Positions 7,747 to 47,824 of a stretch of 48,408 nucleotides of DNA are shown here, piece after piece. Both the position numbers and the translations under genes were made by a program. Source of the DNA: a virus (Duplodnaviria > Heunggongvirae > Uroviricota > Caudoviricetes); the IMG/VR virus record IMGVR_UViG_2740892271_000012. One strand, given 5' to 3'. Below the pieces are notes generated by a model that was given only the letters and a program-made list of their open reading frames with translations, made no database searches and was not told the DNA's origin. The stretch's first letter is position 1; each line of letters begins with the position of its first letter.

Positions 7747-8166
7747 TTAAGAGGCTTTTTGTTTTTTCTTTCGTGCTAGCTCTTCGTAAATTGCATTGTA
7801 CTTCTGTTTTTTCTCCTCAAGAGTTTTTAAAAGTTCATCTGTCTCACTGTCAGGGAGCTCGTCCAGAAGGTCAATGATGATTTTTTGTCTTGGATTTAAC
7901 TCCTGATAGAAACGTACCTGTCCACTTTCTTCTGTATCCTCTCCCAAAAGATAGGTTGGTGTTGTTCCAATGAGTGTTGCTAATTCCCTTAATTTCTCTC
8001 GGCGAGGAATTGTTTCGCCATTAAACCATTTGCTAACCGCTTTTGGTGTTAATTTCATTCGACGGGCAATTTCTGCCTGCCTTCCATGTTGTTCATAACC
8101 AGCGTTTTCACAGGCTAGCGCAAGCCTACTGGCGAACTCTTTACGCGCTTTATCTTCATGAACCAT
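7747..8166 (-). CDS. racR: Prophage repressor (cI-like HTH XRE-family, no S24 peptidase domain; RacR-like)
   Basis: ORF 7747-8184 (GTG); ATG at 8166 gives MVHEDKARKEFASRLALACENAGYEQHGRQAEIARRMKLTPKAVSKWFNGE..., a classic HTH; acidic coiled C-terminus. Confidence 0.7.
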   Translation of the reverse strand: MVHEDKARKEFASRLALACENAGYEQHGRQAEIARRMKLTPKAVSKWFNGETIPRREKLRELATLIGTTPTYLLGEDTEESGQVRFYQELNPRQKIIIDLLDELPDSETDELLKTLEEKKQKYNAIYEELARKKKQKAS

Positions 8167-8245
8167 AAGTTCAATGATATTCACTCTTGAATGTACTGTC
8201 AGTTCTGTTATAGCATGTACTCAAAGTTCACATTGTGAGGGTGAT
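8167..8245. promoter_or_regulatory. Divergent promoter/operator region between repressor and cro-like gene
   Basis: Two direct ATGTACT copies (8191-8197 and 8215-8221) in the 79-bp gap between divergent racR and ydaS starts; same heptamer as at 7631. Confidence 0.35.
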
Positions 8246-8500
8246 ATGAACCAGAAAACACTTGAAGATGTAATCAAAACTGTTCGCGTTTCTGTTGTGG
8301 CCGACGTTTGTGGTGTCAGCCAAAGAGCAATCTACAAATGGATGGATAACGGAAAATTGCCTCGCACAGAATATACCGGCGAAACAAATTACGCTGAAAA
8401 AATCGCTCATGCATCAAACGGATTATTTTCTGCTGATGTAATTTTAACTATTGGCAGAAATAAAACTACTACGAAAAAGCTGATGGGAGTTGATTCATGA
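8246..8500 (+). CDS. ydaS: Cro-like small DNA-binding protein (YdaS-like)
   Basis: ORF 8174-8500; ATG at 8246 gives MNQKTLEDVIKTVRVSVVADVCGVSQRAIYKWMDNGKLP (HTH); divergent from repressor. Confidence 0.7.
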   Translation: MNQKTLEDVIKTVRVSVVADVCGVSQRAIYKWMDNGKLPRTEYTGETNYAEKIAHASNGLFSADVILTIGRNKTTTKKLMGVDS

Positions 8501-8919
8501 AAATCAAGCATGAGCACATCGAGTCAGTGTTGTTAGCCCTGGCAGCCGAAAAAGGGCAGGCATGGGTAGCCAATGCCATTACTGAAGAATATCTGCGCCA
8601 GGGGGGCGGCGAATTGCCCCTGGTACCAGGCAAGGACTGGAATAATCAGCAGAATATCTATCACCGTTGGTTGAAAGGTGAAACGAAAACGCAAAGAGAA
8701 AAAATTCAGAAGCTGATCCCAGCAATTCTGGCAATCCTTCCGCGCGAGCTGCGTCACCGACTCTGCATCTTCGATACCCTGGAACGCCGTGCATTACTGG
8801 CGGCGCAGGAAGCGTTAAGTACGGCAATTGATGCGCATGATGATGCAGTCCAAGCCGTTTACCGGAAAGCGCATTTCAGCGGCGGCGGGTCTTCCGACGA
8901 TTCTGTCATTGTTCATTAA
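8497..8919 (+). CDS. ydaT: YdaT-like protein (CII-position regulator/toxin-like)
   Basis: ORF track 140 aa MKIKHEHIESVLLALAAEKGQAWVANAITEEYL...; start overlaps ydaS stop. Confidence 0.7.
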   Translation: MKIKHEHIESVLLALAAEKGQAWVANAITEEYLRQGGGELPLVPGKDWNNQQNIYHRWLKGETKTQREKIQKLIPAILAILPRELRHRLCIFDTLERRALLAAQEALSTAIDAHDDAVQAVYRKAHFSGGGSSDDSVIVH

Positions 8920-8931
8920 GCAAAAGTTTCC

Positions 8932-9789
8932 ATGCTGTTTGTGCTTATTCTAAGCCACCGGGCAGCATCATACGGGGCAATTATGGCCGCATTACCATAC
9001 ATGCAACTGTACATAGCTGATTACCTGGCTGACACCATGCATTTGTCAGCAGAGGAGCATGGTGCGTATTTGTTGCTGATGTTCAATTACTGGCAAACAG
9101 GAAAGCCAATACCTAAAAACAGGCTGGCAAAAATTGCCCGTCTGACTAACGAGCGATGGGCTGATGTTGAACCATCCTTGCAGGAGTTTTTTTGCGATAA
9201 CGGCGAGGAATGGGTGCATCTTCGGATTGAGGAAGATCTGGCATCAGTCAGGGAAAAATTAACCAAAAAATCAGCCGCAGGAAAAGCATCTGTTCAGGCC
9301 AGAAGAAGCAGAAAGGAAGCAGATGTTCAAACAAAACAAGAGAGAAATTTAACAGGTGTTCAAACAGATGTTGAAGTGGTGTTTGAACATGATGTCAACA
9401 CAAAGGCAACTAATAAAGATACAGATAAAGATCTAAAAACAGATCCCCCCCTAAATCCCCCCCGGGGGAATCGAGGTGTCAAAAAGTTTGACCCTCTGGA
9501 TATTGCTTTGCCGAACTGGATTTCTGTCTCGCTTTGGCGTGAGTGGGTTGAATTTCGCCAGGCATTGCGAAAACCGATTCGAACGGAGCAGGGCGCTAAC
9601 GGGGCGATACGGGAGCTGGAAAAATTCCGCCAGCAGGGTTTTTCACCTGAGCAGGTGATTCGACACAGCATCGCCAATGAATACCAGGGCTTGTTCGCGC
9701 CGAAAGGTGTTCGACCTGAGACGTTACTCCGACAGGTTAACACCGTCTCGTTACCGGATAGTGCGATCCCGCCAGGCTTCAGGGGGTAA
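8932..9789 (+). CDS. ydaU: Replication initiation protein (YdaU-like, lambda O-position)
   Basis: ORF track 285 aa; sits before the DnaC-like loader gene; contains an internal iteron-like cluster in an interdomain linker. Confidence 0.7.
   Translation: MLFVLILSHRAASYGAIMAALPYMQLYIADYLADTMHLSAEEHGAYLLLMFNYWQTGKPIPKNRLAKIARLTNERWADVEPSLQEFFCDNGEEWVHLRIEEDLASVREKLTKKSAAGKASVQARRSRKEADVQTKQERNLTGVQTDVEVVFEHDVNTKATNKDTDKDLKTDPPLNPPRGNRGVKKFDPLDIALPNWISVSLWREWVEFRQALRKPIRTEQGANGAIRELEKFRQQGFSPEQVIRHSIANEYQGLFAPKGVRPETLLRQVNTVSLPDSAIPPGFRG
9321..9390. repeat. Iteron-like cluster: three copies of TGTTCAAACA (two direct, one inverted) followed by an A-rich stretch; candidate phage replication origin
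   Basis: Seen in sequence: tgttcaaaca at 9324-9333 and 9357-9366, reverse complement tgtttgaaca at 9380-9389, then aataaagatacagataaagatctaaaaac. Confidence 0.35.
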
Positions 9790-9795
9790 CTGACC

Positions 9796-10542
9796 ATGAA
9801 AAATATTGCGACAGGCGACGTTCTTGAACGTATCCGCAGACTGGCCCCGTCACATGTAACCGCGCCATTCAAGACGGTAGCGGAGTGGCGCGAGTGGCAA
9901 CTTTCCGAAGGCCAGAAACGTTGTGAGGAGATCAACCGTCAGAATCGTCAGTTGCGGGTGGAAAAAATTCTGAATCGCTCTGGCATCCAGCCATTGCACC
10001 GCAAATGCTCGTTTTCGAATTACCAGGTGCAGAACGAAGCGCAGCGATACGCGTTGAGTCAGGCGAAATCCATCGCTGATGAACTGATGACCGGGTGTAC
10101 AAATTTTGCGTTCAGCGGAAAACCTGGTACCGGGAAGAACCACTTAGCGGCAGCTATCGGGAATCGCCTGCTGAAAGACGGTCAGACAGTGATTGTGGTT
10201 ACCGTGGCTGATGTTATGAGTGCCCTGCACGCCAGCTATGACGATGGGCAGTCAGGCGAAAAATTTTTGCGGGAACTATGCGAAGTGGATCTGCTGGTTC
10301 TTGATGAAATTGGCATTCAGCGCGAGACGAAAAACGAGCAGGTGGTGCTGCACCAGATTGTTGATCGCCGGACAGCGTCGATGCGCAGCGTGGGGATGCT
10401 GACAAACCTGAACTATGAGGCCATGAAAACATTGCTCGGCGAGCGGATTATGGATCGCATGACCATGAACGGCGGGCGATGGGTGAATTTTAACTGGGAG
10501 AGCTGGCGTCCGAATGTCGTCCAGCCAGGAATTGAGAAGTAA
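9796..10542 (+). CDS. ydaV: DnaC-like helicase loader / IstB-like AAA+ ATPase (lambda P-position)
   Basis: ORF track 248 aa with Walker A GKPGTGKN and Walker B LLVLDEIG. Confidence 0.85.
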
Positions 10543-10564
10543 TTTTTACCGGGAGGAAATTTTT

Positions 10565-11326
10565 ATGGAGACTGTTTTTGACGCACTGAAAGCAATGGGA
10601 AAAGCCACATCCATAGAACTTGCTGCGCGACTTGATATCAGTCGTGAAGAAGTGCTGAACGAACTATGGGAACTGAAAAAAGCTGGTTTCGTTGATAAAA
10701 GCGCGTACACCTGGCGTGTGGCTGATAACAACGTTCAGCAGGAACAGCCAATGCAGGCAGAACTGCCGGAAGAAACCACCACGGCAACTGTAGTGAAAAT
10801 CTCAGAGTGCGATTTAACCGCGACGATTGAACAACGCGGACCACAAACGGCGGATGAACTGGCTACGCTGTTCGGTACAACATCCCGCAAAGTTGCTTCA
10901 ACGCTGGCAATGGCAATCAGCAAAGGACGCCTGATTCGCGTAAACCAGAACAGTAAATTTCGTTACTGCATGCCGGGCGATAATTTACCAGCAGAGCCGA
11001 AAGCTGCATCGGTAGCGGAAACTGATGGTAAAGCCTTTCCTCAGCCAGCCGGTGTTGCGTTACCAGTACAGGAAGCGGCAACACAGGAAGATATTAAAAC
11101 AGAAACTGTGGCGGACATTGTGCAGTCGCTGCCATCGTTTACTGAAACGCAAGCGGATGACCTAGTTTTACCATCGCTGCATATGGCAAACCGCGAACTG
11201 CGTCGGGCGAAAAATCATGTCCAGAAGTGGGAGCGAGTCTGCGCCGCGCTGCGGGAGCTGAACAAGCACCGGGATATTGTCCGACAGATTGTCGATTCCT
11301 CCAGTCGTATTGTGTCGGAAAAGTGA
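10565..11326 (+). CDS. Hypothetical protein (YdaW-like)
   Basis: ORF 10514-11326; ATG at 10565 gives [31 protein letters not shown] (winged-helix-like N-terminus). Confidence 0.5.
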
Positions 11327-19623: not shown

Positions 19624-20110
19624 TGCCTCCATCATTACGAAAAGTCGTTGCTGCTGCTATTGGTGGCGGAGCAATTGCTATAGCATCAGTGTTAATCACT
19701 GGCCCAAGTGGTAACGATGGTCTGGAAGGTGTCAGCTACATACCATACAAAGATATTGTTGGTGTATGGACTGTATGTCACGGGCATACAGGAAAAGACA
19801 TCATGNNNNNNNNNNNNNNNNNNNNNNNNNNNNNNNNNNNNNNNNNNNNNNNNNNNNNNNNNNNNNNNNNNNNNNNNNNNNNNNNNNNNNNNNNNNNNNN
19901 NNNNNNNNNNNNNNNNNNNNNNNNNNNNNNNNNNNNNNNNNNNNNNNNNNNNNNNNNNNNNNNNNNNNNNNNNNNNNNNNNNNNNNNNNNNNNNNNNNNN
20001 NNNNNNNNNNNNNNNNNNNNNNNNNNNNNNNNNNNNNNNNNNNNNNNNNNNNNNNNNNNNNNNNNNNNNNNNNNNNNNNNNNNNNNNNNNNNNNNNNNNN
20101 NNNNNNNNNN
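19623..20110 (+). CDS. SAR endolysin (phage 21 R / lysozyme family); 3' part masked by N-run
   Basis: Visible N-terminus [61 protein letters not shown] (Gly/Ala-rich SAR segment); end inferred from expected length. Confidence 0.7.
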
Positions 20111-20134
20111 NNNNNNNNNNNNNNNNNNNNNNNN
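19806..20134. other. N-run (masked or unresolved sequence), 329 nt, across the endolysin 3' end and Rz start
   Basis: Literal n characters in the supplied sequence. Confidence 1.
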
Positions 20135-24211: not shown

Positions 24212-25306
24212 ATGAGCAGACCGGACTGGGGGGCGTTGCAGCAGGAGTATATTGCTGAATACACCCGCTCCGGTATATCTCCGGTGGCATGGTGTGAAGC
24301 AAGGGGACTGAATTACGCAACAGCCCGTCGTTACATCAAAAAAACTCCGAAAAATGCGCAGACAGAAATGTGCAAAACTGCGCAAAAAAGTGCGCAGAAA
24401 AAATCTGCGCAGACTGCACAAAAGCGGAACGAAAAATCTCAGGAAAAAAAGCCAGTATTCGATGCGGGCCTGAATGAGGGCGACGCGGAGGAATTTTCGT
24501 TCTGTCCCGATGAATTCGGCATTTCTGACCAGCAGGCTAAGTTTGCGATGCTTGTTGCTCAGGGTAAAAAGCCGACAGAGGCGTACCGACTAGCCGGTTA
24601 TGAGGGGCAAGGTGCGACAGCTAACAGCAACGCCAGTCGTATGCTTAGAAATGCCAGGGTTTTTCGCGCTATCAGCTACTTCCGCAATCAGTACCAGAAA
24701 CGCTATACCGCAGACCTGGATTTACTAGTGAGTCAGTTGATGGCTATTGTCCTGGCCGACCCCAATCAGCTTGCACAATTTCGCCGTGTTAACTGCCGTT
24801 ATTGCTGGGGCGAGAATCATCTCTACCAGTGGCGCGATATAGCAGAATTCGACAAGGCAGCGGCGCAGGCTTCCAGAGATGGCAAACCCGAACCGGAATA
24901 TGGAGGCCTCGGCTTTGTTGATAACGCCATACCCAATCCGGACTGCCCGAAGTGCTGCGGTGAGGGAACGGGACAGCTTTATATGGCTGATACCACTCTG
25001 CTTGATGGGGATGCGCGGCAATTATATGCAGGGGCAAAATTCGGAAAATTCGGCGTTGAGATCCTGCTGGAGGATAAGGCTGCCGCCCGGCGTGAATTGT
25101 TGCGTTTGTTTTCTGCTGGCGGGGCTTTATGTGCAGATAAGCGGCTACGGGAACTGGAAATTGAACGGCGCAGAATGGAAAACCAGAAGCTGCGCAAAGA
25201 GATCGAAACGGTGGAAGATAATGAACATCCCCAGCCTGTGGCGATCAATATTAATGTGGTTGATGCCAGAGTAAGGAGTGATGAAGATGATCTCTCCGAC
25301 GCTTAA
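24212..25306 (+). CDS. Terminase small subunit (N-terminal HTH)
   Basis: ORF track 364 aa; N-terminal GISPVAWCEARGLNYATARRYIKK; Cys-rich central region; directly precedes the terminase large subunit. Confidence 0.6.
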   Translation: MSRPDWGALQQEYIAEYTRSGISPVAWCEARGLNYATARRYIKKTPKNAQTEMCKTAQKSAQKKSAQTAQKRNEKSQEKKPVFDAGLNEGDAEEFSFCPDEFGISDQQAKFAMLVAQGKKPTEAYRLAGYEGQGATANSNASRMLRNARVFRAISYFRNQYQKRYTADLDLLVSQLMAIVLADPNQLAQFRRVNCRYCWGENHLYQWRDIAEFDKAAAQASRDGKPEPEYGGLGFVDNAIPNPDCPKCCGEGTGQLYMADTTLLDGDARQLYAGAKFGKFGVEILLEDKAAARRELLRLFSAGGALCADKRLRELEIERRRMENQKLRKEIETVEDNEHPQPVAININVVDARVRSDEDDLSDA

Positions 25307-39211: not shown

Positions 39212-40001
39212 ATGACACAGACAGAATCAGCGATTCTGGCGCACGCCCGGCGATGTGCGCCAGCGGAGTCGTGCGGCTTCGTGGTGAGAACACCGGAGGG
39301 GGAAAGATATTTTCCCTGCGTGAATATTTCCGGTGAGCCGGAGGAGTATTTCCGGATGGCTCCGGAGGACTGGCTGCAGGCAGAGATGCAGGGTGAGATT
39401 GTGGCGCTGGTCCACAGCCNNNNNNNNNNNNNNNNNNNNNNNNNNNNNNNNNNNNNNNNNNNNNNNNNNNNNNNNNNNNNNNNGGCTGAGTGAGGCCGAC
39501 CGGCGGCTGCAGGTGCAGAGTGATTTGTCGTGGTGGCTGGTCTGCCGCGGGGCGATTCACAAGTTCCGCTGTGTGCCGCATCTCACCGGGCGGCGCTTTG
39601 AGCACGGGGTGACGGACTGTTACACGCTGTTCCGGGACGCTTACCATCTGGCGGGAATTGAGATGCCAGATTTTCATCGTGAGGACGACTGGTGGCGTAA
39701 TGGTCAGAATCTCTATCTGGATAATCTGGAGGCTACAGGGCTGTATCAGGTGCCGTTGTCAACGGCGCAGCCGGGCGATGTGCTGCTGTGCTGTTTTGGT
39801 TCATCGGTGCCGAATCATGCCGCCATTTACTGTGGTGACGGCGAGCTGCTGCACCATATTCCTGAACAACTGAGTAAACGAGAGAGGTACACCGACAAAT
39901 GGCAGCGACGCACACACTCCCTCTGGCGTCACCGGGCATGGCACGCATCTGCCTTTACGGGGATTTGCAGCGATTTGGCCGCCGCATCGACCTTCGTGTG
40001 A
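39212..40001 (+). CDS. Tail assembly protein (lambda K-like; JAB/MPN plus NlpC/P60 regions); interrupted by 64-nt N-run
   Basis: N-terminal MTQTESAILAHARRCAPAESCGFVV...; after the gap a C-terminal Cys/His region (VLLCCFGSSVPNHAAIYCGDGELLHH); frame across the gap is inferred. Confidence 0.75.
39420..39483. other. N-run, 64 nt, inside the K-like gene
   Basis: Literal n characters. Confidence 1.
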
Positions 40002-40606: not shown

Positions 40607-43600
40607 ATGGGTAAAGGCAGCAGTAAGGGGCATACCCCGCGCGAAGCGAAGGACAACCTGAAGTCCACGCAGCTGCTGAGTGTGATCGATGCCATCAGTG
40701 AAGGGCCGGTTGAAGGTCCGGTGGATGGATTAAAAAGCGTGCTGCTGAACAGTACGCCGGTGCTGGACAATGAGGGGAATACCAACATCTCCGGCGTCAC
40801 GGTGGTGTTCCGGGCAGGTGAGCAGGAACAGACACCGCCGGAGGGATTTGAATCATCAGGTTCCGAGACGGTACTGGGTACGGAAGTGAAATATGACACG
40901 CCGATCACCCGGACCATCACGTCGGCAAACATCGACCGTCTGCGCTTTACCTTCGGTGTACAGGCACTGGTGGAAACCACCTCAAAGGGAGACAGGAATC
41001 CGTCGGAAGTCCGCCTGCTGGTTCAGATACAACGTAATGGTGGCTGGGTGACGGAAAAAGACATCACCATTAAGGGCAAAACCACCTCGCAGTATCTGGT
41101 CTCGGTGGTGGTGGATAACCTGCCTCCGCGCCCGTTCAGTATCCGGATGCGCAGGATGACACCGGACAGCACCACAGACCAGCTGCAGAACAAAACGCTC
41201 TGGTCGTCATACACCGAAATCATCGATGTGAAACAGTGCTACCCGAACACTGCACTGGTCGGCGTACAGGTGGACTCGGAGCAGTTCGGCAGCCAGCAGG
41301 TGAGTCGTAATTATCATCTTCGCGGGCGCATTCTGCAGGTGCCGTCGAACTATAACCCGCAGACGCGACAATACAGCGGTATCTGGGACGGAACGTTAAA
41401 ACCAGCATACAGCAACAACATGGCCTGGTGTCTGTGGGATATGCTGACCCACCCGCGCTACGGCATGGGGAAACGTCTTGGTGCGGCGGATGTGGACAAA
41501 TGGGCGCTGTATGTCATCGGCCAGTACTGCGACCAGTCAGTGCCGGACGGCTTTGGCGGCACGGAGCCGCGCATCACCTGTAATGCGTACCTGACCACAC
41601 AGCGCAAGGCGTGGGATGTGCTCAGTGATTTCTGCTCGGCGATGCGCTGTATGCCGGTATGGAACGGGCAGACGCTGACGTTCGTGCAGGACCGACCGTC
41701 GGATAAGGTGTGGACCTATAACCGCAGTAATGTGGTGATGCCGGATGATGGCGCGCCGTTCCGCTACAGCTTCAGCGCCCTGAAAGACCGCCATAATGCC
41801 GTTGAGGTGAACTGGATTGACCCGGATAACGGCTGGGAGACGGCGACANNNNNNNNNNNNNNNNNNNNNNNNNNNNNNNNNNNNNNNNNNNNNNNNNNNN
41901 NNNNNNNNNNNNNNNNNNNNNNNNNNNNNNNNNNNNNNNNNNNNNNNNNNNNNNNNNNNNNNNNNNNNNNNNNNNNNNNNNNNNNNNNNNNNNNNNNNNN
42001 NNNNNNNNNNNNNNNNNNNNNNNNNNNNNNNNNNNNNNNNNNNNNNNNNNNNNNNNNNNNNNNNNNNNNNNNNNNNNNNNNNNNNNNNNNNNNNNNNNNN
42101 NNNNNNNNNNNNNNNNNNNNNNNNNNNNNNNNNNNNNNNNNNNNNNNNNNNNNNNNNNNNGCTGACGCTCGACCGTGAAATCACGCTGCCATCCTCCGGT
42201 ACCATGCTGATAAGCCTGGTTGACGGAAGTGGCAATCCGGTCAGCGTGGAGGTTCAGTCCGTCACCGACGGCGTGAAGGTGAAAGTGAGCCGTGTTCCTG
42301 ACGGCGTTGCTGAATACAGCGTGTGGGGGCTGAAGCTGCCGACGTTGCGCCAGCGCCTGTTCCGCTGTGTGAGTATCCGTGAGAACGATGACGGCACGTA
42401 TGCCATCACTGCCGTGCAGCATGTACCGGAAAAAGAAGCCATCGTGGATAACGGGGCGCACTTTGACGGCGACCAGAGCGGCACGGTGAATGGTGTCACG
42501 CCGCCAGCGGTGCAGCACCTGACTGCCGAAGTCACCGCAGACAGCGGGGAATATCAGGTGCTGGCGCGCTGGGACACGCCGAAGGTGGTGAAGGGGGTGA
42601 GCTTTATGCTTCGCCTGACCGTGGCAGCGGATGACGGCAGTGAGCGGCTGGTCAGCACGGCCCGGACGACGGAAACCACATACCGCTTCACGCAACTGGC
42701 GCTGGGACGGTACACGCTGACAGTCCGGGCGGTAAATGCCTGGGGACAGCAGGGCGATCCGGCGTCGGTATCGTTCAGGATTGCCGCACCGGTAGCACCG
42801 TCGCGGATTGAGCTGACGCCGGGCTATTTTCAGATAACTGCCACGCCGCATCTTGCGGTTTATGATCCGACGGTACAGTTTGAGTTCTGGTTCTCGGAAA
42901 CGCGGATTACCGATATCAGGCAGGTTGAAACCACAGCCCGCTACCTTGGCGCGGGGCTGTACTGGATAGCCGCCAGTATCAATATCAAACCGGGCCATGA
43001 TTATTACTTTTATATCCGCAGTGTGAACACCGTTGGCAAATCGGCATTCGTGGAGGCCGTCGGTCGGGCGAGCGATGATGCGGAAGGTTACCTGGATTTT
43101 TTCAAAGGCAAGATAACCGAATCCCATCTCGGTAAAGAGCTGCTGGAAAAAGTTGATCTGACGGAGGATAACGCCAGCAGACTGGATGAGTTTTCGAAAG
43201 AGTGGAAGGACGCTAACGATAAATGGAATGCGATGTGGGGCGTCAAAATTGAGCAGACCAAAGACGGCAAACATTATGTCGCGGGTATTGGCCTCAGCAT
43301 GGAGGACACGGAGGAAGGCAAGCTGAGCCAGTTTCTGGTTGCCGCCAATCGTATCGCGTTTATTGACCCGGCAAACGGGAATGAAACGCCGATGTTTGTG
43401 GCGCAGGGCAACCAGATATTCATGAACGACGTGTTCCTGAAGCGCCTGACAGCCCCCGCCATTACCAGCGGTGGCAGTCCTCCGGTATTTTCCCTGACAT
43501 CAGACGGAAAGCTGACCGCTAAAAATGCGGATATCAGTGGTAGTGTGAATGCGAACTCAGGAACGCTCAACAATGTCACGATTAACCAGAACTGTACGAT

Positions 43601-44114: not shown

Positions 44115-44708
44115 NNNNNNNNNNNNNNNNNNNNNNNNNNNNNNNNNNNNNNNNNNNNNNNNNNNNNNNNNNNNNNNNNNNNNNNNNNNNNNNNNNNNNN
44201 NNNNNNNNNNNNNNNNNNNNNNNNNNNNNNNNNNNNNNNNNNNNNNNNNNNNNNNNNNNNNNNNNNNNNNNNNNNNNNNNNNNNNNNNNNNNNNNNNNNN
44301 NNNNNNNNNNNNNNNNNNNNNNNNNNNNNNNNNNNNNNNNNNNNNNNNNNNNNNNNNNNNNNNNNNNNNNNNNNNNNNNNNNNNNNNNNNNNNNNNNNNN
44401 NNNNNNNNNNNNNNNNNNNNNNNNNNNNNNNNNNNNNNNNNNNNNNNNNNNNNNNNNNNNNNNNNNNNNNNNNNNNNNNNNNNNNNNNNNNNNNNNNNNN
44501 NNNNNNNNNNNNNNNNNNNNNNNNNNNNNNNNNNNNNNNNNNNNNNNNNNNNNNNNNNNNNNNNNNNNNNNNNNNNNNNNNNNNNNNNNNNNNNNNNNNN
44601 NNNNNNNNNNNNNNNNNNNNNNNNNNNNNNNNNNNNNNNNNNNNNNNNNNNNNNNNNNNNNNNNNNNNNNNNNNNNNNNNNNNNNNNNNNNNNNNNNNNN
44701 NNNNNNNN
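44115..44708. other. N-run, 594 nt, covering most of the lom-like gene and its upstream region
   Basis: Literal n characters. Confidence 1.
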
Positions 44709-44857: not shown

Positions 44858-47824
44858 ATGGCAGTAAAGATTTCAGGTGTACTGAAAGACGGCACAGGAA
44901 AACCGGTACAGAACTGCACAATCCAGCTGAAAGCAAAACGTAACAGCACCACGGTGGTGGTGAACACGCTGGCCTCAGAAAATCCGGATGAAGCCGGGCG
45001 TTACAGCATGGACGTTGAGTACGGTCAGTACAGCGTTATTCTGTTGGTGGAAGGATTCCCGCCGTCACATGCCGGGACCATCACTGTGTATGAAGATTCC
45101 CGACCCGGTACGCTGAATGATTTTCTCGGTGCCATGACGGAGGATGATGCCCGTCCGGAGGCTCTGCGCCGTTTTGAACTGATGGTGGAAGAGGTGGCGC
45201 GTAACGCGTCCGCGGTGGCACAGAACACGGCAGCCGCGAAGAAGTCAGCCAGTGATGCCGGCACATCTGCCCGTGAGGCGGCAACCCATGCGACTGATGC
45301 TGCAGGCTCAGCGCGTGCAGCCAGCACGTCAGCCGGACAGGCCGCGACTTCGGCTCAGGAGGCGTCTTCCAGCGCAGGAACGGCATCAACAAAGGCCACT
45401 GAAGCATCAAAAAGTGCTGCCGCTGCAGAGTCCTCAAAAAGCGCGGCGGCCACCAGTGCCGGTGCGGCGAAAACGTCAGAAACGAATGCTGCAGCGTCAC
45501 AAAAATCAGCAGCCACTTCTGCATCCACTGCGACAACGAAAGCGTCAGAAGCCGCCACTTCAGCCAGAGATGCGGCGGCCTCCAAAGAGGCGGCAAAATC
45601 ATCAGAAACGAACGCCTCCACAAGCGCCAGCAGTGCAGCCTCCTCGGCAACGGCGGCAGGAAATTCCGTGAAGGCGGCAAAAACGTCCGAGACGAATGCT
45701 AAGTCTTCTGAAACGGCAGCGGAACAGAGCGCCTCAGCTGCGGCAGACTCTGAGACAGCAGCTGCATCATNNNNNNNNNNNNNNNNNNNNNNNNNNNNNN
45801 NNNNNNNNNNNNNNNNNNNNNNNNNNNNNNNNNNNNNNNNNNNNNNNNNNNNNNNNNNNNNNNNNNNNNNNNNNNNNNNNNNNNNNNNNNNNNNNNNNNN
45901 NNNNNNNNNNNNNNNNNNNNNNNNNNNNNNNNNNNNNNNNNNNNNNNNNNNNNNNNNNNNNNNNNNNNNNNNNNNNNNNNNNNNNNNNNNNNNNNNNNNN
46001 NNNNNNNNNNNNNNNNNNNNGGCGTCATCGGCATCATCTGCGTCTGCTTCAAAAGATGAGGCGACCAGACAGGCGTCAGCAGCGAGGGGCAGCGCCACGA
46101 CGGCATCCACGAAGGCGACAGAGGCTGCTGGCAGTGCGGCAGCGGCAGCACAGAGCAAAAGTACGGCGGAATCCGCGGCAACGCGCGCCGAGACAGCAGC
46201 AAAACGGGCAGAGGATATTGCATCCGCCGTGGCGCTTGAGGATGCGAGCACGACGAAAAAGGGGATAGTACAGCTCAGCAGTGCGACCAACAGCACTTCC
46301 GAGTCACAGGCGGCAACGCCAAAAGCCGTTAAGGCCGCGTATGACCTGGCTAACGGGAAATACACCGCACAGGATGCAACGACAGCACAGAAAGGGATAG
46401 TTCAGCTCAGCAGTGCGACTAACAGCACTTCCGAGTCACAGGCGGCAACGCCAAAAGCCGTTAAGGCCGCGTATGACCTGGCTAACGGGAAATACACCGC
46501 ACAGGACGCTACGACAGCACAAAAAGGAATTGTCCAGCTCAGTAGTGCAACCAACAGCACATCTGAAACGCTTGCTGCGACACCGAAAGCAGTGAAAGCA
46601 GCTAATGACAATGCGAATGGTCGGGTACCTTCTGCCCGTAAGGTGAATGGTAAGGCGCTTTCAGCGGATATAACACTGACGCCGAAAGATATTGGTACGC
46701 TTAACTCAACAACAATGTCATTCAGCGGTGGTGCTGGTTGGTTCAAATTAGCAACGGTAACCATGCCACAGGCGAGTTCTGTTGTTTCAATTACGTTGAT
46801 TGGTGGCGCTGGATTTAACGTGGGGTCACCTCAACAGGCAGGTATATCTGAACTTGTTTTACGTGCAGGTAATGGTAATCCGAAGGGGATTACTGGTGCT
46901 TTATGGCAGCGCACATTGACAGGGTTTACAAATTTTGCCTGGGTTAATACATCTGGTGATACTTACGATATTTACGTTGCAATCGGAAATTATGCGACTG
47001 GTGTAAATATTCAATGGGATTATACCAGTAATGCCAGCGTGACGATTCATACGTCACCAGCATATTCTGCTAATAAGCCGGAAGGGTTAACGGACGGTAC
47101 AGTTTATTCACTCTATACGCCATCAGAGCAGTTTTATCCGCCTGGCGCACCAATCCCGTGGCCATCAGATACCGTTCCGTCTGGCTATGCCCTGATGCAG
47201 GGGCAGGCTTTTGACAAATCTGCATACCCGAAACTTGCAGCGGCTTATCCGTCAGGCGTGATCCCTGATATGCGTGGCTGGACGATTAAGGGCAAACCTG
47301 CCAGTGGTCGGGCCGTATTGTCTCAGGAACAGGACGGCATTAAATCGCATACCCACAGCGCCAGCGCATCCAGTACGGATTTGGGGACGAAAACCACATC
47401 GTCGTTTGATTACGGCACTAAATCCACGAATAACACTGGTGCGCATACCCATAGTTTAAGTGGCAGCACGAATGCAGCTGGTAATCACAGCCATAGAGAT
47501 GGCCGTCGATTTAACCCCAGTGTTTTTAAAGATACTTATCAATATGGTTATACAAGCTCAGGTCAAAATACCTGGGGTGTACAAGGCTCAGTAGGTATGT
47601 CTACGGGGTGGTTAGCGAATACCAGTACAGATGGTAATCATAGCCACTCACTGTCCGGCACAGCAGCATCTGCAGGTGCACACGCGCATACTGTCGGTAT
47701 TGGTGCTCATACGCACTCCGTTGCGATTGGTTCACATGGACACACCATCACCGTTAACGCTGCTGGTAACGCGGAAAACACCGTCAAAAACATCGCATTT
47801 AACTATATTGTGAGGCTTGCATAA
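44858..47824 (+). CDS. stfR: Side tail fibre protein (Stf-like); interrupted by 250-nt N-run
   Basis: ATG at 44858 gives [26 protein letters not shown]... (lambda Stf-like N-terminus); long Ala/Ser/Thr-rich repeats; tandem 44-aa repeats; His-rich C-terminal tip. Confidence 0.85.
45771..46020. other. N-run, 250 nt, inside stf
   Basis: Literal n characters. Confidence 1.
46256..46650 (+). repeat. Tandem ~132-bp repeats inside stf (two near-identical copies plus one diverged copy)
   Basis: Seen in sequence: gggatagtacagctcagcagtgcgaccaacagcacttccgagtcacaggcggcaacgccaaaagccgttaaggccgcgtatgacctggctaacgggaaatacaccgcacagga recurs from 46262 and 46394 with a few substitutions; third copy from about 46526. 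Confidence 0.6.

Follow-up and report, generated by a model that had tools for sequence, protein, structure and literature searches.

A candidate intragenic replication origin in the ydaU initiator gene of a Rac-type prophage

The prophage Rac has a replication origin that is active, oriJ (PMC3945230), and PMC11014345 cites a study of oriJ-based plasmid replication. However, the examined Rac stretch of the K-12 RefSeq record, ydaU included, carries no rep_origin feature. The question of where replication of such a prophage starts is raised by ydaU, the replication initiator gene within a viral sequence of 48,408 nucleotides (IMG/VR record IMGVR_UViG_2740892271_000012; hereafter the window), which comprises a Rac-type prophage early region with repressor, Cro-like gene, ydaT, ydaU and ydaV. 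An earlier, sequence-only reading had proposed a repeat cluster, an A-rich segment and two runs of seven C inside ydaU as a candidate origin. The present analysis points to positions 9284-9444, in the section of ydaU that encodes the inter-domain linker of its product, as the cis-acting origin of the Rac-type prophage and as oriJ, a reading to which we assign a probability of roughly 0.8. The evidence supports a lambda-style intragenic iteron origin, which would, however, belong to a different initiator family, DUF1376.

The features on which this reading is built are the following (window positions; aa, amino acids):

8932..9789, plus strand: ydaU, replication initiator gene; longest open reading frame (ORF) 285 aa
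8983..9339, plus strand: N-terminal DUF1376 domain, predicted to fold as a winged helix-turn-helix with a long helix behind it; proposed iteron-binding domain
9284..9333, no strand: outlying iteron units AAGCATCTGTTC (9284) and AAGCAGATGTTCAAACA (9317), separated by 33 bp from each other and again by 33 bp from the core array
9350..9400, no strand: core iteron array, AACA gg TGTT ca AACA ga TGTT ... TGTT tg AACA tga TGTC AACA
9401..9444, no strand: A-rich low-stability stretch, candidate DNA unwinding element, CAACTAATAAA GATACA GATAAA GATCTA AAAACA GATC
9445..9468, plus strand: two C7 tracts within CCCCCCCTAAATCCCCCCCGGGGG, the GC-rich start of an exchangeable C-terminal module, abutting the A-rich stretch
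9470..9789, plus strand: C-terminal domain, DnaT-like, residues ~172-285; proposed recruiter of the loader-helicase complex
9796..10542, plus strand: ydaV, DnaC-like helicase loader (NCBIfam PRK12377, Pfam, PHROG); proposed partner of the YdaU C-domain

Phased repeats and an A-rich stretch within ydaU

The decamer TGTTCAAACA occurs exactly at 9324-9333 and 9357-9366 on the plus strand and at 9380-9389 on the minus strand, with no further exact copy in the window. Counting both strands, it is the sole 10-mer of the window with three non-overlapping copies within 70 nt, and triples of that kind arose in none of 200 dinucleotide-preserving shuffles. The sequence-only reading had listed just these three copies, two direct and one inverted, within 70 bp. 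The copies as such proved exact, but the decamer is not the actual unit and the repeats had been under-counted, as they belong to a phased array of AACA/TGTT half-sites. Ten of these half-sites, alternating and inverted, are packed into the 77 nt of 9324-9400, which is the maximum of the window (Poisson P ~3e-8). The core array has a period of ~12 bp and includes the second and third copies of TGTTCAAACA. Perfect AACANNTGTT sites are present in the window at 9351 and 9363 only, and sites with at most one mismatch at 9285 and 9318 mark the outlying, weaker units. Spacings within this repeat family (D1) are 33, 33 and 12 bp and thus roughly follow the helical repeat of the DNA. The alternation of the half-sites makes both registers palindromic, TGTT-CA-AACA (that of the earlier reading) and AACA-NN-TGTT, and a protein dimer might use either.

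The placement of the repeats in the inter-domain linker was confirmed, as the array lies between the DUF1376 domain and the C-terminal domain of the ORF. A cluster of initiator-type sites thus occurs within the coding sequence of the initiator itself, between its N- and C-terminal domains, and, as in lambda, an AT-rich region of low stability adjoins the iterons. The A-rich segment seen earlier behind the repeats is real: the GC fraction is 0.28 in 9380-9439, and no 30-bp duplex of 8000-11000 is less stable than 9408-9438, which adjoins the array on its 3' side; in the whole window, only 0.2% of the positions are less stable. The stretch is a degenerate hexamer repeat, representing a degenerate version of the (GATACA)n found in relatives. 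GATC (Dam) occurs in it twice, at 9430 and at 9442, 12 bp apart. Among 17 enterobacterial relatives sharing ancestry, the GATC density amounts to 18 per kb at +396..+475 versus 3.7 per kb elsewhere (~5-fold), and this clustering is only a lead towards Dam control of the putative origin. Similarly kept only as a lead is an apparent likeness of the bottom-strand GATCTGTTTTTAG and GATCTTTATCTGT to the 13-mers of oriC.

The sequence-only reading had pointed out that lambda ori follows the same arrangement, iterons followed by an AT-rich region inside the initiator gene, which is borne out by the annotated lambda record: four iterons are found at nt 349-433 of O, and nt 434-480 are A-rich with a purine skew. 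The corresponding ydaU positions, if the MAALPY start at 8983 is taken as reference, are ~+302..+418 for the iterons and +419..+462 for the A-rich stretch. Both genes accordingly have iterons and then an A-rich stretch with purine skew at the inter-domain linker of the initiator, at a near-equal gene position. In each system, moreover, origin and N-domain form one pair and loader and C-domain another, and the gene is located just downstream of the immunity and cII-like region. The two systems differ in the N-domain, which is Phage_rep_O in O and DUF1376 in YdaU, and in the repeat units, four of 18 bp in lambda versus 4-bp half-sites with a period of 11-12 bp on the YdaU side. In addition, YdaU has a DnaT-like C-domain and is accompanied by a DnaC-like loader instead of lambda P. 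An alignment of the A-rich stretches of Rac and lambda was too weak for a claim of homology.

The layout recurs among DUF1376 initiators

A first protein search returned only near-identical copies of YdaU, and more diverse homologues were obtained by a profile search. The family set comprises 83 loci, from 80 species-level genomes and three phages, and spans many phyla, with Enterobacteriaceae, Pseudomonas, Alphaproteobacteria, Planctomycetes and others. Across 4.3 kb per locus, exact pairs of 9-mers, direct or inverted, within 100 nt were scored after removal of low-complexity sequence. The comparison of iterons across relatives, which had been suggested earlier for Rac-like prophages, revealed that the layout recurs at the same gene position in this diverse set. 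Repeats were present at the expected place in 61 of the 83 loci; 56% of the loci had such pairs at +300..+400 from the N-domain start and 29% at +400..+500, compared to a background of ~12%.

The motifs themselves vary by lineage (AACGACCGTT, AACGGTCGT, AACGAACGTT, AACAGCCGTT, CAACGGGTGT, TCAACACCTG) around a common palindromic theme, AAC[G/A]NN[C/T]GTT. Arrays homologous to the Rac core consist in relatives of AACGNNCGTT with a period of 11 bp. In the sample displayed, AACCCAG/CTGGGTT motifs occur instead in three loci (L154, L156, L167) whose N-domains share an MNYY..HHIGD start. Direct repeats within the linker are spaced by 11 bp in 21 loci, by 22 bp in eight and by 33 bp in nine. Copies that are 11 or 22 bp apart lie in different reading frames, so that the repeat is maintained at the level of the DNA rather than of the peptide. 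On the 3' side, the repeats are directly followed (+380..+440) by the deepest GC dip of the neighborhood (-0.08 to -0.11), where A accounts for a fraction of 0.36-0.40. In 25 relatives this dip contains microsatellites, among them (GATACA)n in 15 loci, (AACCAG)n in five and (AAGAG)n in three.

As a separate observation, the linker motif (9-10 nt) recurs once or twice more in eight relatives inside the part coding for the N-domain, between +109 and +188: at +109 in L008, +164 and +188 in L106, +182 in L109, +138 in L122, +139 and +172 in L124, +164 in L126, +165 in L147 and +176 in L168. L139 is an exception with its extra copy outside this range. Some of these copies overlap the conserved N-D-R-W codons (AACGACCGTTGG), and they may be auxiliary binding sites or a coincidence of coding.

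Origin, regulatory sites or peptide repeat

Several observations weigh against an origin at 9284-9444. The only primers designated 'oriJ' that we found, used for quantitative polymerase chain reaction (qPCR) in PMC3945230, map within ydaV, at 10053-10207, ~650 bp downstream of the array. Since no base-level location of oriJ was found in the accessible literature, the equation of the array with oriJ is an inference of ours. The loci of the family are related by descent, so that their shared layout is partly due to inheritance. The first 10-mer and the outlying units (9284, 9317) are variable even between close relatives, and relatives of 83% identity no longer have them. When AACANNTGTT was scanned loosely (at most two mismatches), the cluster was no better than in shuffled sequence, and the stricter tests given above (exact 10-mer triple, half-site count) were used in its place. 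Finally, the Rac spacings of 12 and 33 bp are all multiples of 3, and therefore spacing alone leaves a peptide repeat possible for this one sequence.

The alternative that survives best, albeit as an unlikely one, is that YdaU or another phage protein binds the sites in order to regulate, not to initiate, e.g., by autoregulation, a roadblock or copy-number control through handcuffing, and that the origin is located elsewhere, e.g., in or near ydaV or in the immunity region. The published amplicon in ydaV would fit such a scenario, as would the extra decamer copies in the N-domain coding part of several relatives, and a binding-site array cannot be told from an origin by sequence alone. However, the amplicon itself is of ordinary composition and contains no repeats; as it has no origin-like features, we read it as a nearby proxy for the origin. 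Moreover, no second repeat cluster or stability minimum occurs from ydaS to ydaV, the array is coupled throughout the family to an A-rich minimum that a pure operator would not need, and the layout fits that of the annotated lambda ori.

It is less probable still that the repeats, without any function at the DNA level, merely result from a disordered linker whose peptide sequence is repetitive (VQT / DV.. / TD) and arose by slippage or duplication. The in-frame Rac spacings, which give DVQT, GVQT, DVEV and DVNT, the predicted disorder of the linker and the finding that (GATACA)n is always read as (TD)n in the 15 relatives would be expected from such an origin of the repeats. In contrast, a peptide repeat does not account for the copies lying in different frames in the 29 loci with 11- or 22-bp spacing, for the palindromic units and the one inverted copy in Rac, or for a DNA motif that is conserved while the linker peptides differ; (AAGAG)4 pentamers are likewise out of frame. 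An intragenic origin remains the preferred explanation for the array.

Exchange of initiator modules next to the candidate origin

The mosaic structure of the locus was analyzed in 80 close relatives taken from viral contigs. The N-domain, the iterons and the A-rich stretch were always found together, and the sequence beyond ~9430-9445 was exchanged; every breakpoint of a module swap is located just before the C7 region, no more than ~15 bp behind the A-rich stretch. Exchange of the C-domain is accompanied by exchange of the loader gene, which is either DnaC-like or lambda P-like. Four versions of the C-module occur: the window's own DnaT-like C-domain with ydaV behind it; the L003 type (L003 1508-2972), which has the Pfam DnaT DNA-binding domain and a subsequent lambda-P-like gene; a version with an in-frame insertion of 114 aa; and a further distinct C-terminal type. 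The reverse combination is seen in E. coli H2 and A1.S1.160, in which the same C-domain and ydaV follow an unrelated N-domain without Pfam match, and where the repeats at the equivalent mid-gene place differ as well (GCGTTAC/GTAACGC, four to five copies). In the phages SPN3UB and mEpX1, the N-domain is a true Phage_rep_O domain, whereas the C-domain is YdaU-type and the loader DnaC-like; iterons of their own are located at the same place. These combinations follow the lambdoid rule that the N-domain determines which origin is used and the C-domain which loader, adding a further example of exchange between an origin-plus-N-domain unit and a C-domain-plus-loader unit. Together, the family layout, the N-domain-specific repeats and the mosaic linkage support the earlier proposal that the candidate origin lies inside the initiator gene.

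Slightly less likely still than a peptide repeat is a conserved linker DNA that serves primarily as a junction at which initiator modules are shuffled by recombination. All swaps do break within the short interval behind the A-rich stretch, a CAACTAATAAAGATACAGAT-like sequence is common to otherwise diverged enterobacterial relatives, and two independent insertion sequence (IS) elements have apparently entered the region. However, a junction leaves the phased palindromic half-sites, the 11-bp period and the co-variation with the N-domain unexplained, and its use, although real, is best regarded as an expected consequence of an origin flanked by a functional module on either side, like that of lambdoid O genes.

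Three further observations concern the mosaic relatives. L004 (1074-1862) and L005 (970-1758) encode a Pfam-less N-domain joined to a YdaU-type C-domain, with GCGTTAC repeats at gene nt 149-173 and 368-403; this N-domain may be another uncharacterised origin-binding domain. Two separate truncations of ydaU start inside the candidate origin, at ~2152 in L084 (~9396 in the window) and at ~2174 in L012 (~9422). The sequence behind them presumably represents IS ends, IS2-like in L084 and IS3-family-like in L012. The 114-aa in-frame insertion is situated at the C-tract site (equivalent to ~9445-9470) of 382-aa YdaU variants (L044, L074, L075, L079, L081-L083), and the inserted sequence gave no Pfam match.

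The C7 tracts belong to the C-terminal module

The two runs of seven C behind the A-rich segment, which had been noticed as unusual homopolymers, are present at 9445-9451 and 9457-9463, where they form a 12-nt direct repeat, ATCCCCCCC; they account for two of the four C/G runs of at least 7 in the window. Their proposed roles did not stand. The region encodes DPPLNPPRG (PPLNPPRG in 9445-9468), which contains the stretch Pro-Pro-Leu-Asn-Pro-Pro-Arg and constitutes the first residues of the C-terminal module, and this Pro-rich motif recurs with shorter C runs at the start of related C-modules (DLPLNPPR in L004, TPFNPPKG in SPN3UB, and also in mEpX1). As Pro-rich coding start of an exchangeable module, the C7 tracts lie outside the origin block and are not origin signals.

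The tracts had also been thought to promote slippage, and the comparison of C-tract lengths was carried out for this module. All 57 relatives carrying it have C7 and C7, which leaves single-base slippage unsupported. The sole change in length is an in-frame duplication of the 12-nt unit in L013, resulting in three times PPLN, and a decayed copy, L002, has C7 and C6 among many other lesions. A phase-variable homopolymer (contingency) locus was considered and rejected, as tract length is constant in 57/57. The least likely of all alternatives is accordingly that the tracts switch the initiator on and off by single-base slippage: two C7 runs only 12 nt apart and the C6 of L002 would suit such a switch, but neither the invariant tract length nor the retention of the Pro-rich motif via shorter C runs does.

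Domains of YdaU and a proposed mechanism of initiation

No usable information on the function of DUF1376 was found in the literature. Residues 22-104 of the longest YdaU ORF (285 aa) match this family (PF07120) with a score of 92.2 bits (E 2.7e-26), the gathering cut-off being 30.1. The annotated start in ydaU relatives is the internal ATG at 8983 (MAALPYMQLY..., 268 aa). Among PHROG families, 'primosomal protein' and 'replication initiation O-like' were matched. Phage_rep_O (PF04492) gave no match in YdaU, in which DUF1376 was the only hit, and none in the L003-type relative, but is present in SPN3UB and mEpX1. YdaU appears to work like O but falls outside the O family.

For the N-domain, an AlphaFold2 model based on 103 diverse homologues reached a predicted local distance difference test (pLDDT) score of 91.5 and consists of a winged helix-turn-helix and a long helix. 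Foldseek searches with this model resulted in weak matches, nearly all to winged-helix proteins or domains and mostly to MarR-type regulators. The closest compact structural neighbors include the plasmid replication initiator 4pta_D, the winged helices of ORC/Cdc6 and the N-terminal domain of DnaD. Sequence and profile searches of the N-domain against PDB yielded no significant match. A single-sequence AlphaFold model of the 268-aa form was poor (pLDDT 49) and was used solely for the linker being unstructured; the linker has no secondary structure and the lowest confidence in this model. As observed separately, fusions to HNH endonuclease domains (PF01844, PF14279) occur in eight DUF1376 proteins (P0160, P0165, P0186, P0195, P0196, P0217, P0226, P0239).

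The C-domain of YdaU is common to 'replication protein O-like' or lambda-O-type initiators that precede DnaC-like loaders, such as those of mEpX1 and SPN3UB. YdaV was assigned to NCBIfam PRK12377 (E 5e-152), with a DnaC equivalog match below cut-off, and further matches Pfam IstB_IS21 and Bac_DnaA and the PHROG family of DnaC-like helicase loaders. In addition, the last ~75 residues of YdaU (9560-9789) show a weak sequence match in PDB to the C-terminus of DnaT (2ru8_A, 9zbt_D), the tail VNTVS.PDS.IPPGFRG included.

From these properties, a sequence of events may be proposed for initiation. The winged-helix DUF1376 N-domain of YdaU would bind the phased AACA/TGTT array and form an O-some-like complex. 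As the sites are spaced at multiples of ~11-12 bp, they would be presented on one face of the helix. The nucleoprotein complex would then distort the DNA and open the adjoining A-rich stretch, 9401-9444, probably assisted by early rightward transcription, which, judging from gene orientation only, would run from the immunity region through ydaU and the origin. The DnaT-like C-domain would recruit the host DnaB via YdaV, which is encoded immediately downstream, and the helicase would be loaded onto the opened DNA. We infer these activities, namely iteron binding by the N-domain, unwinding and helicase loading, whereas the analysis shows the repeats with their statistics, the stability minimum, the layout conserved in the family, the 11-bp spacing out of frame, the linkage seen in mosaics and the fold predicted for the N-domain. 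Indirect support for binding of the repeats and for initiator-dependent replication is given only by the winged-helix model and the published mention of oriJ.

A wider conclusion, which we hold tentatively and at somewhat less than even odds, is that DUF1376 would be the origin-binding winged helix of a large, hitherto uncharacterised class of phage and prophage initiators in Proteobacteria and beyond, with a near-universal grammar of the intragenic origin: alternating half-sites of the AACG/CGTT type, in Rac AACA/TGTT, that recur every 11 bp, and behind them an A-rich microsatellite of variable length, such as (GATACA)n, as unwinding element, with Dam sites acquired in enterobacteria. If true, microsatellite length and Dam methylation could tune origin firing. 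Of all the findings, this family-wide grammar is the likeliest to be new. It would give DUF1376 a concrete function with a predicted recognition motif that can be read from each gene, and would make origins in many prophages and phages accessible to annotation.

Relation to oriJ and other initiators

The array is likely to be the classic Rac oriJ. The window represents the same type of prophage, and its ydaT-ydaU-ydaV segment is nearly that of K-12, with ydaU one base off. The oriJ of K-12 is known genetically and in the form of oriJ plasmids, and the K-12 prophage differs from the window in its immunity region. The array would provide a base-level candidate for this classic K-12 prophage origin, which has been used as a plasmid replicon.

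The initiators of mEpX1 and SPN3UB resemble YdaU in the C-domain family, the C-run/Pro-rich start, the type of loader and the mid-gene iterons, and SPN3UB also in the tail ...IPTGFRG; they differ in the N-domain family and in the iterons, which are of the ATCCCCGAAAA and TTAGAGACA types. Plasmid initiators of the RepA_N type, such as that of a multiresistance plasmid (PDB 4pta), and the DnaD N-terminal domain have modest structural scores and no detectable sequence similarity to YdaU, and differ in host range and partner proteins. A further relation exists to the DnaT-DnaC pair of E. coli: the C-terminus of YdaU matches that of DnaT together with the tail motif, and the gene order ydaU-ydaV mirrors dnaT-dnaC. 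DnaT differs from YdaU in that it lacks an origin-binding N-domain and serves replication restart, not an iteron origin. The presence of a DnaT-like recruiting domain in YdaU bears on the question of a phage ancestry of the dnaT-dnaC pair.

Gene context and further features of the window

Upstream of ydaU, the following features were identified:

7747..8919: upstream immunity and early region, gene order like that of K-12 Rac, with a promoter-like site in the divergent region
7747-8184, minus strand: repressor (Pfam HTH_3 among the matches of the region)
8174-8500: Cro-like gene (Pfam P22_Cro-like)
8497-8919: ydaT (Pfam YdaT_toxin)

No Rfam match and, upon scanning, no promoter-like or terminator-like site was found in 9284-9470, and a scan for IHF sites yielded nothing in the candidate-origin region. 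An oriC-type, DnaA-dependent origin was considered as well and rejected, as no cluster of DnaA boxes (TTWTNCACA) was found in 8400-10600, where no perfect box and only three scattered sites with one mismatch are present.

The 901 nt of 8900-9800, which include ydaU, are 99.9-100% identical to many E. coli genomes, K-12 among them. Compared to the ydaU of MG1655 (99.9% identity), a single base differs, at 9505, which is outside the candidate origin. The repressor and Cro-like genes (7747-8500) are unrelated to racR and ydaS of K-12, whereas ydaT-ydaU-ydaV is nearly identical. Hence, this prophage and K-12 Rac share the same replication module and differ in the immunity module.

Elsewhere in the window, runs of N (bases masked or unknown) occupy 19806-20134, 39420-39483, 41849-42160, 44115-44708 and 45771-46020. 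The only other 8-mer triple within 70 nt is TCTGCGCA, with copies at 24355, 24391 and 24404 (24355-24411, strands combined).

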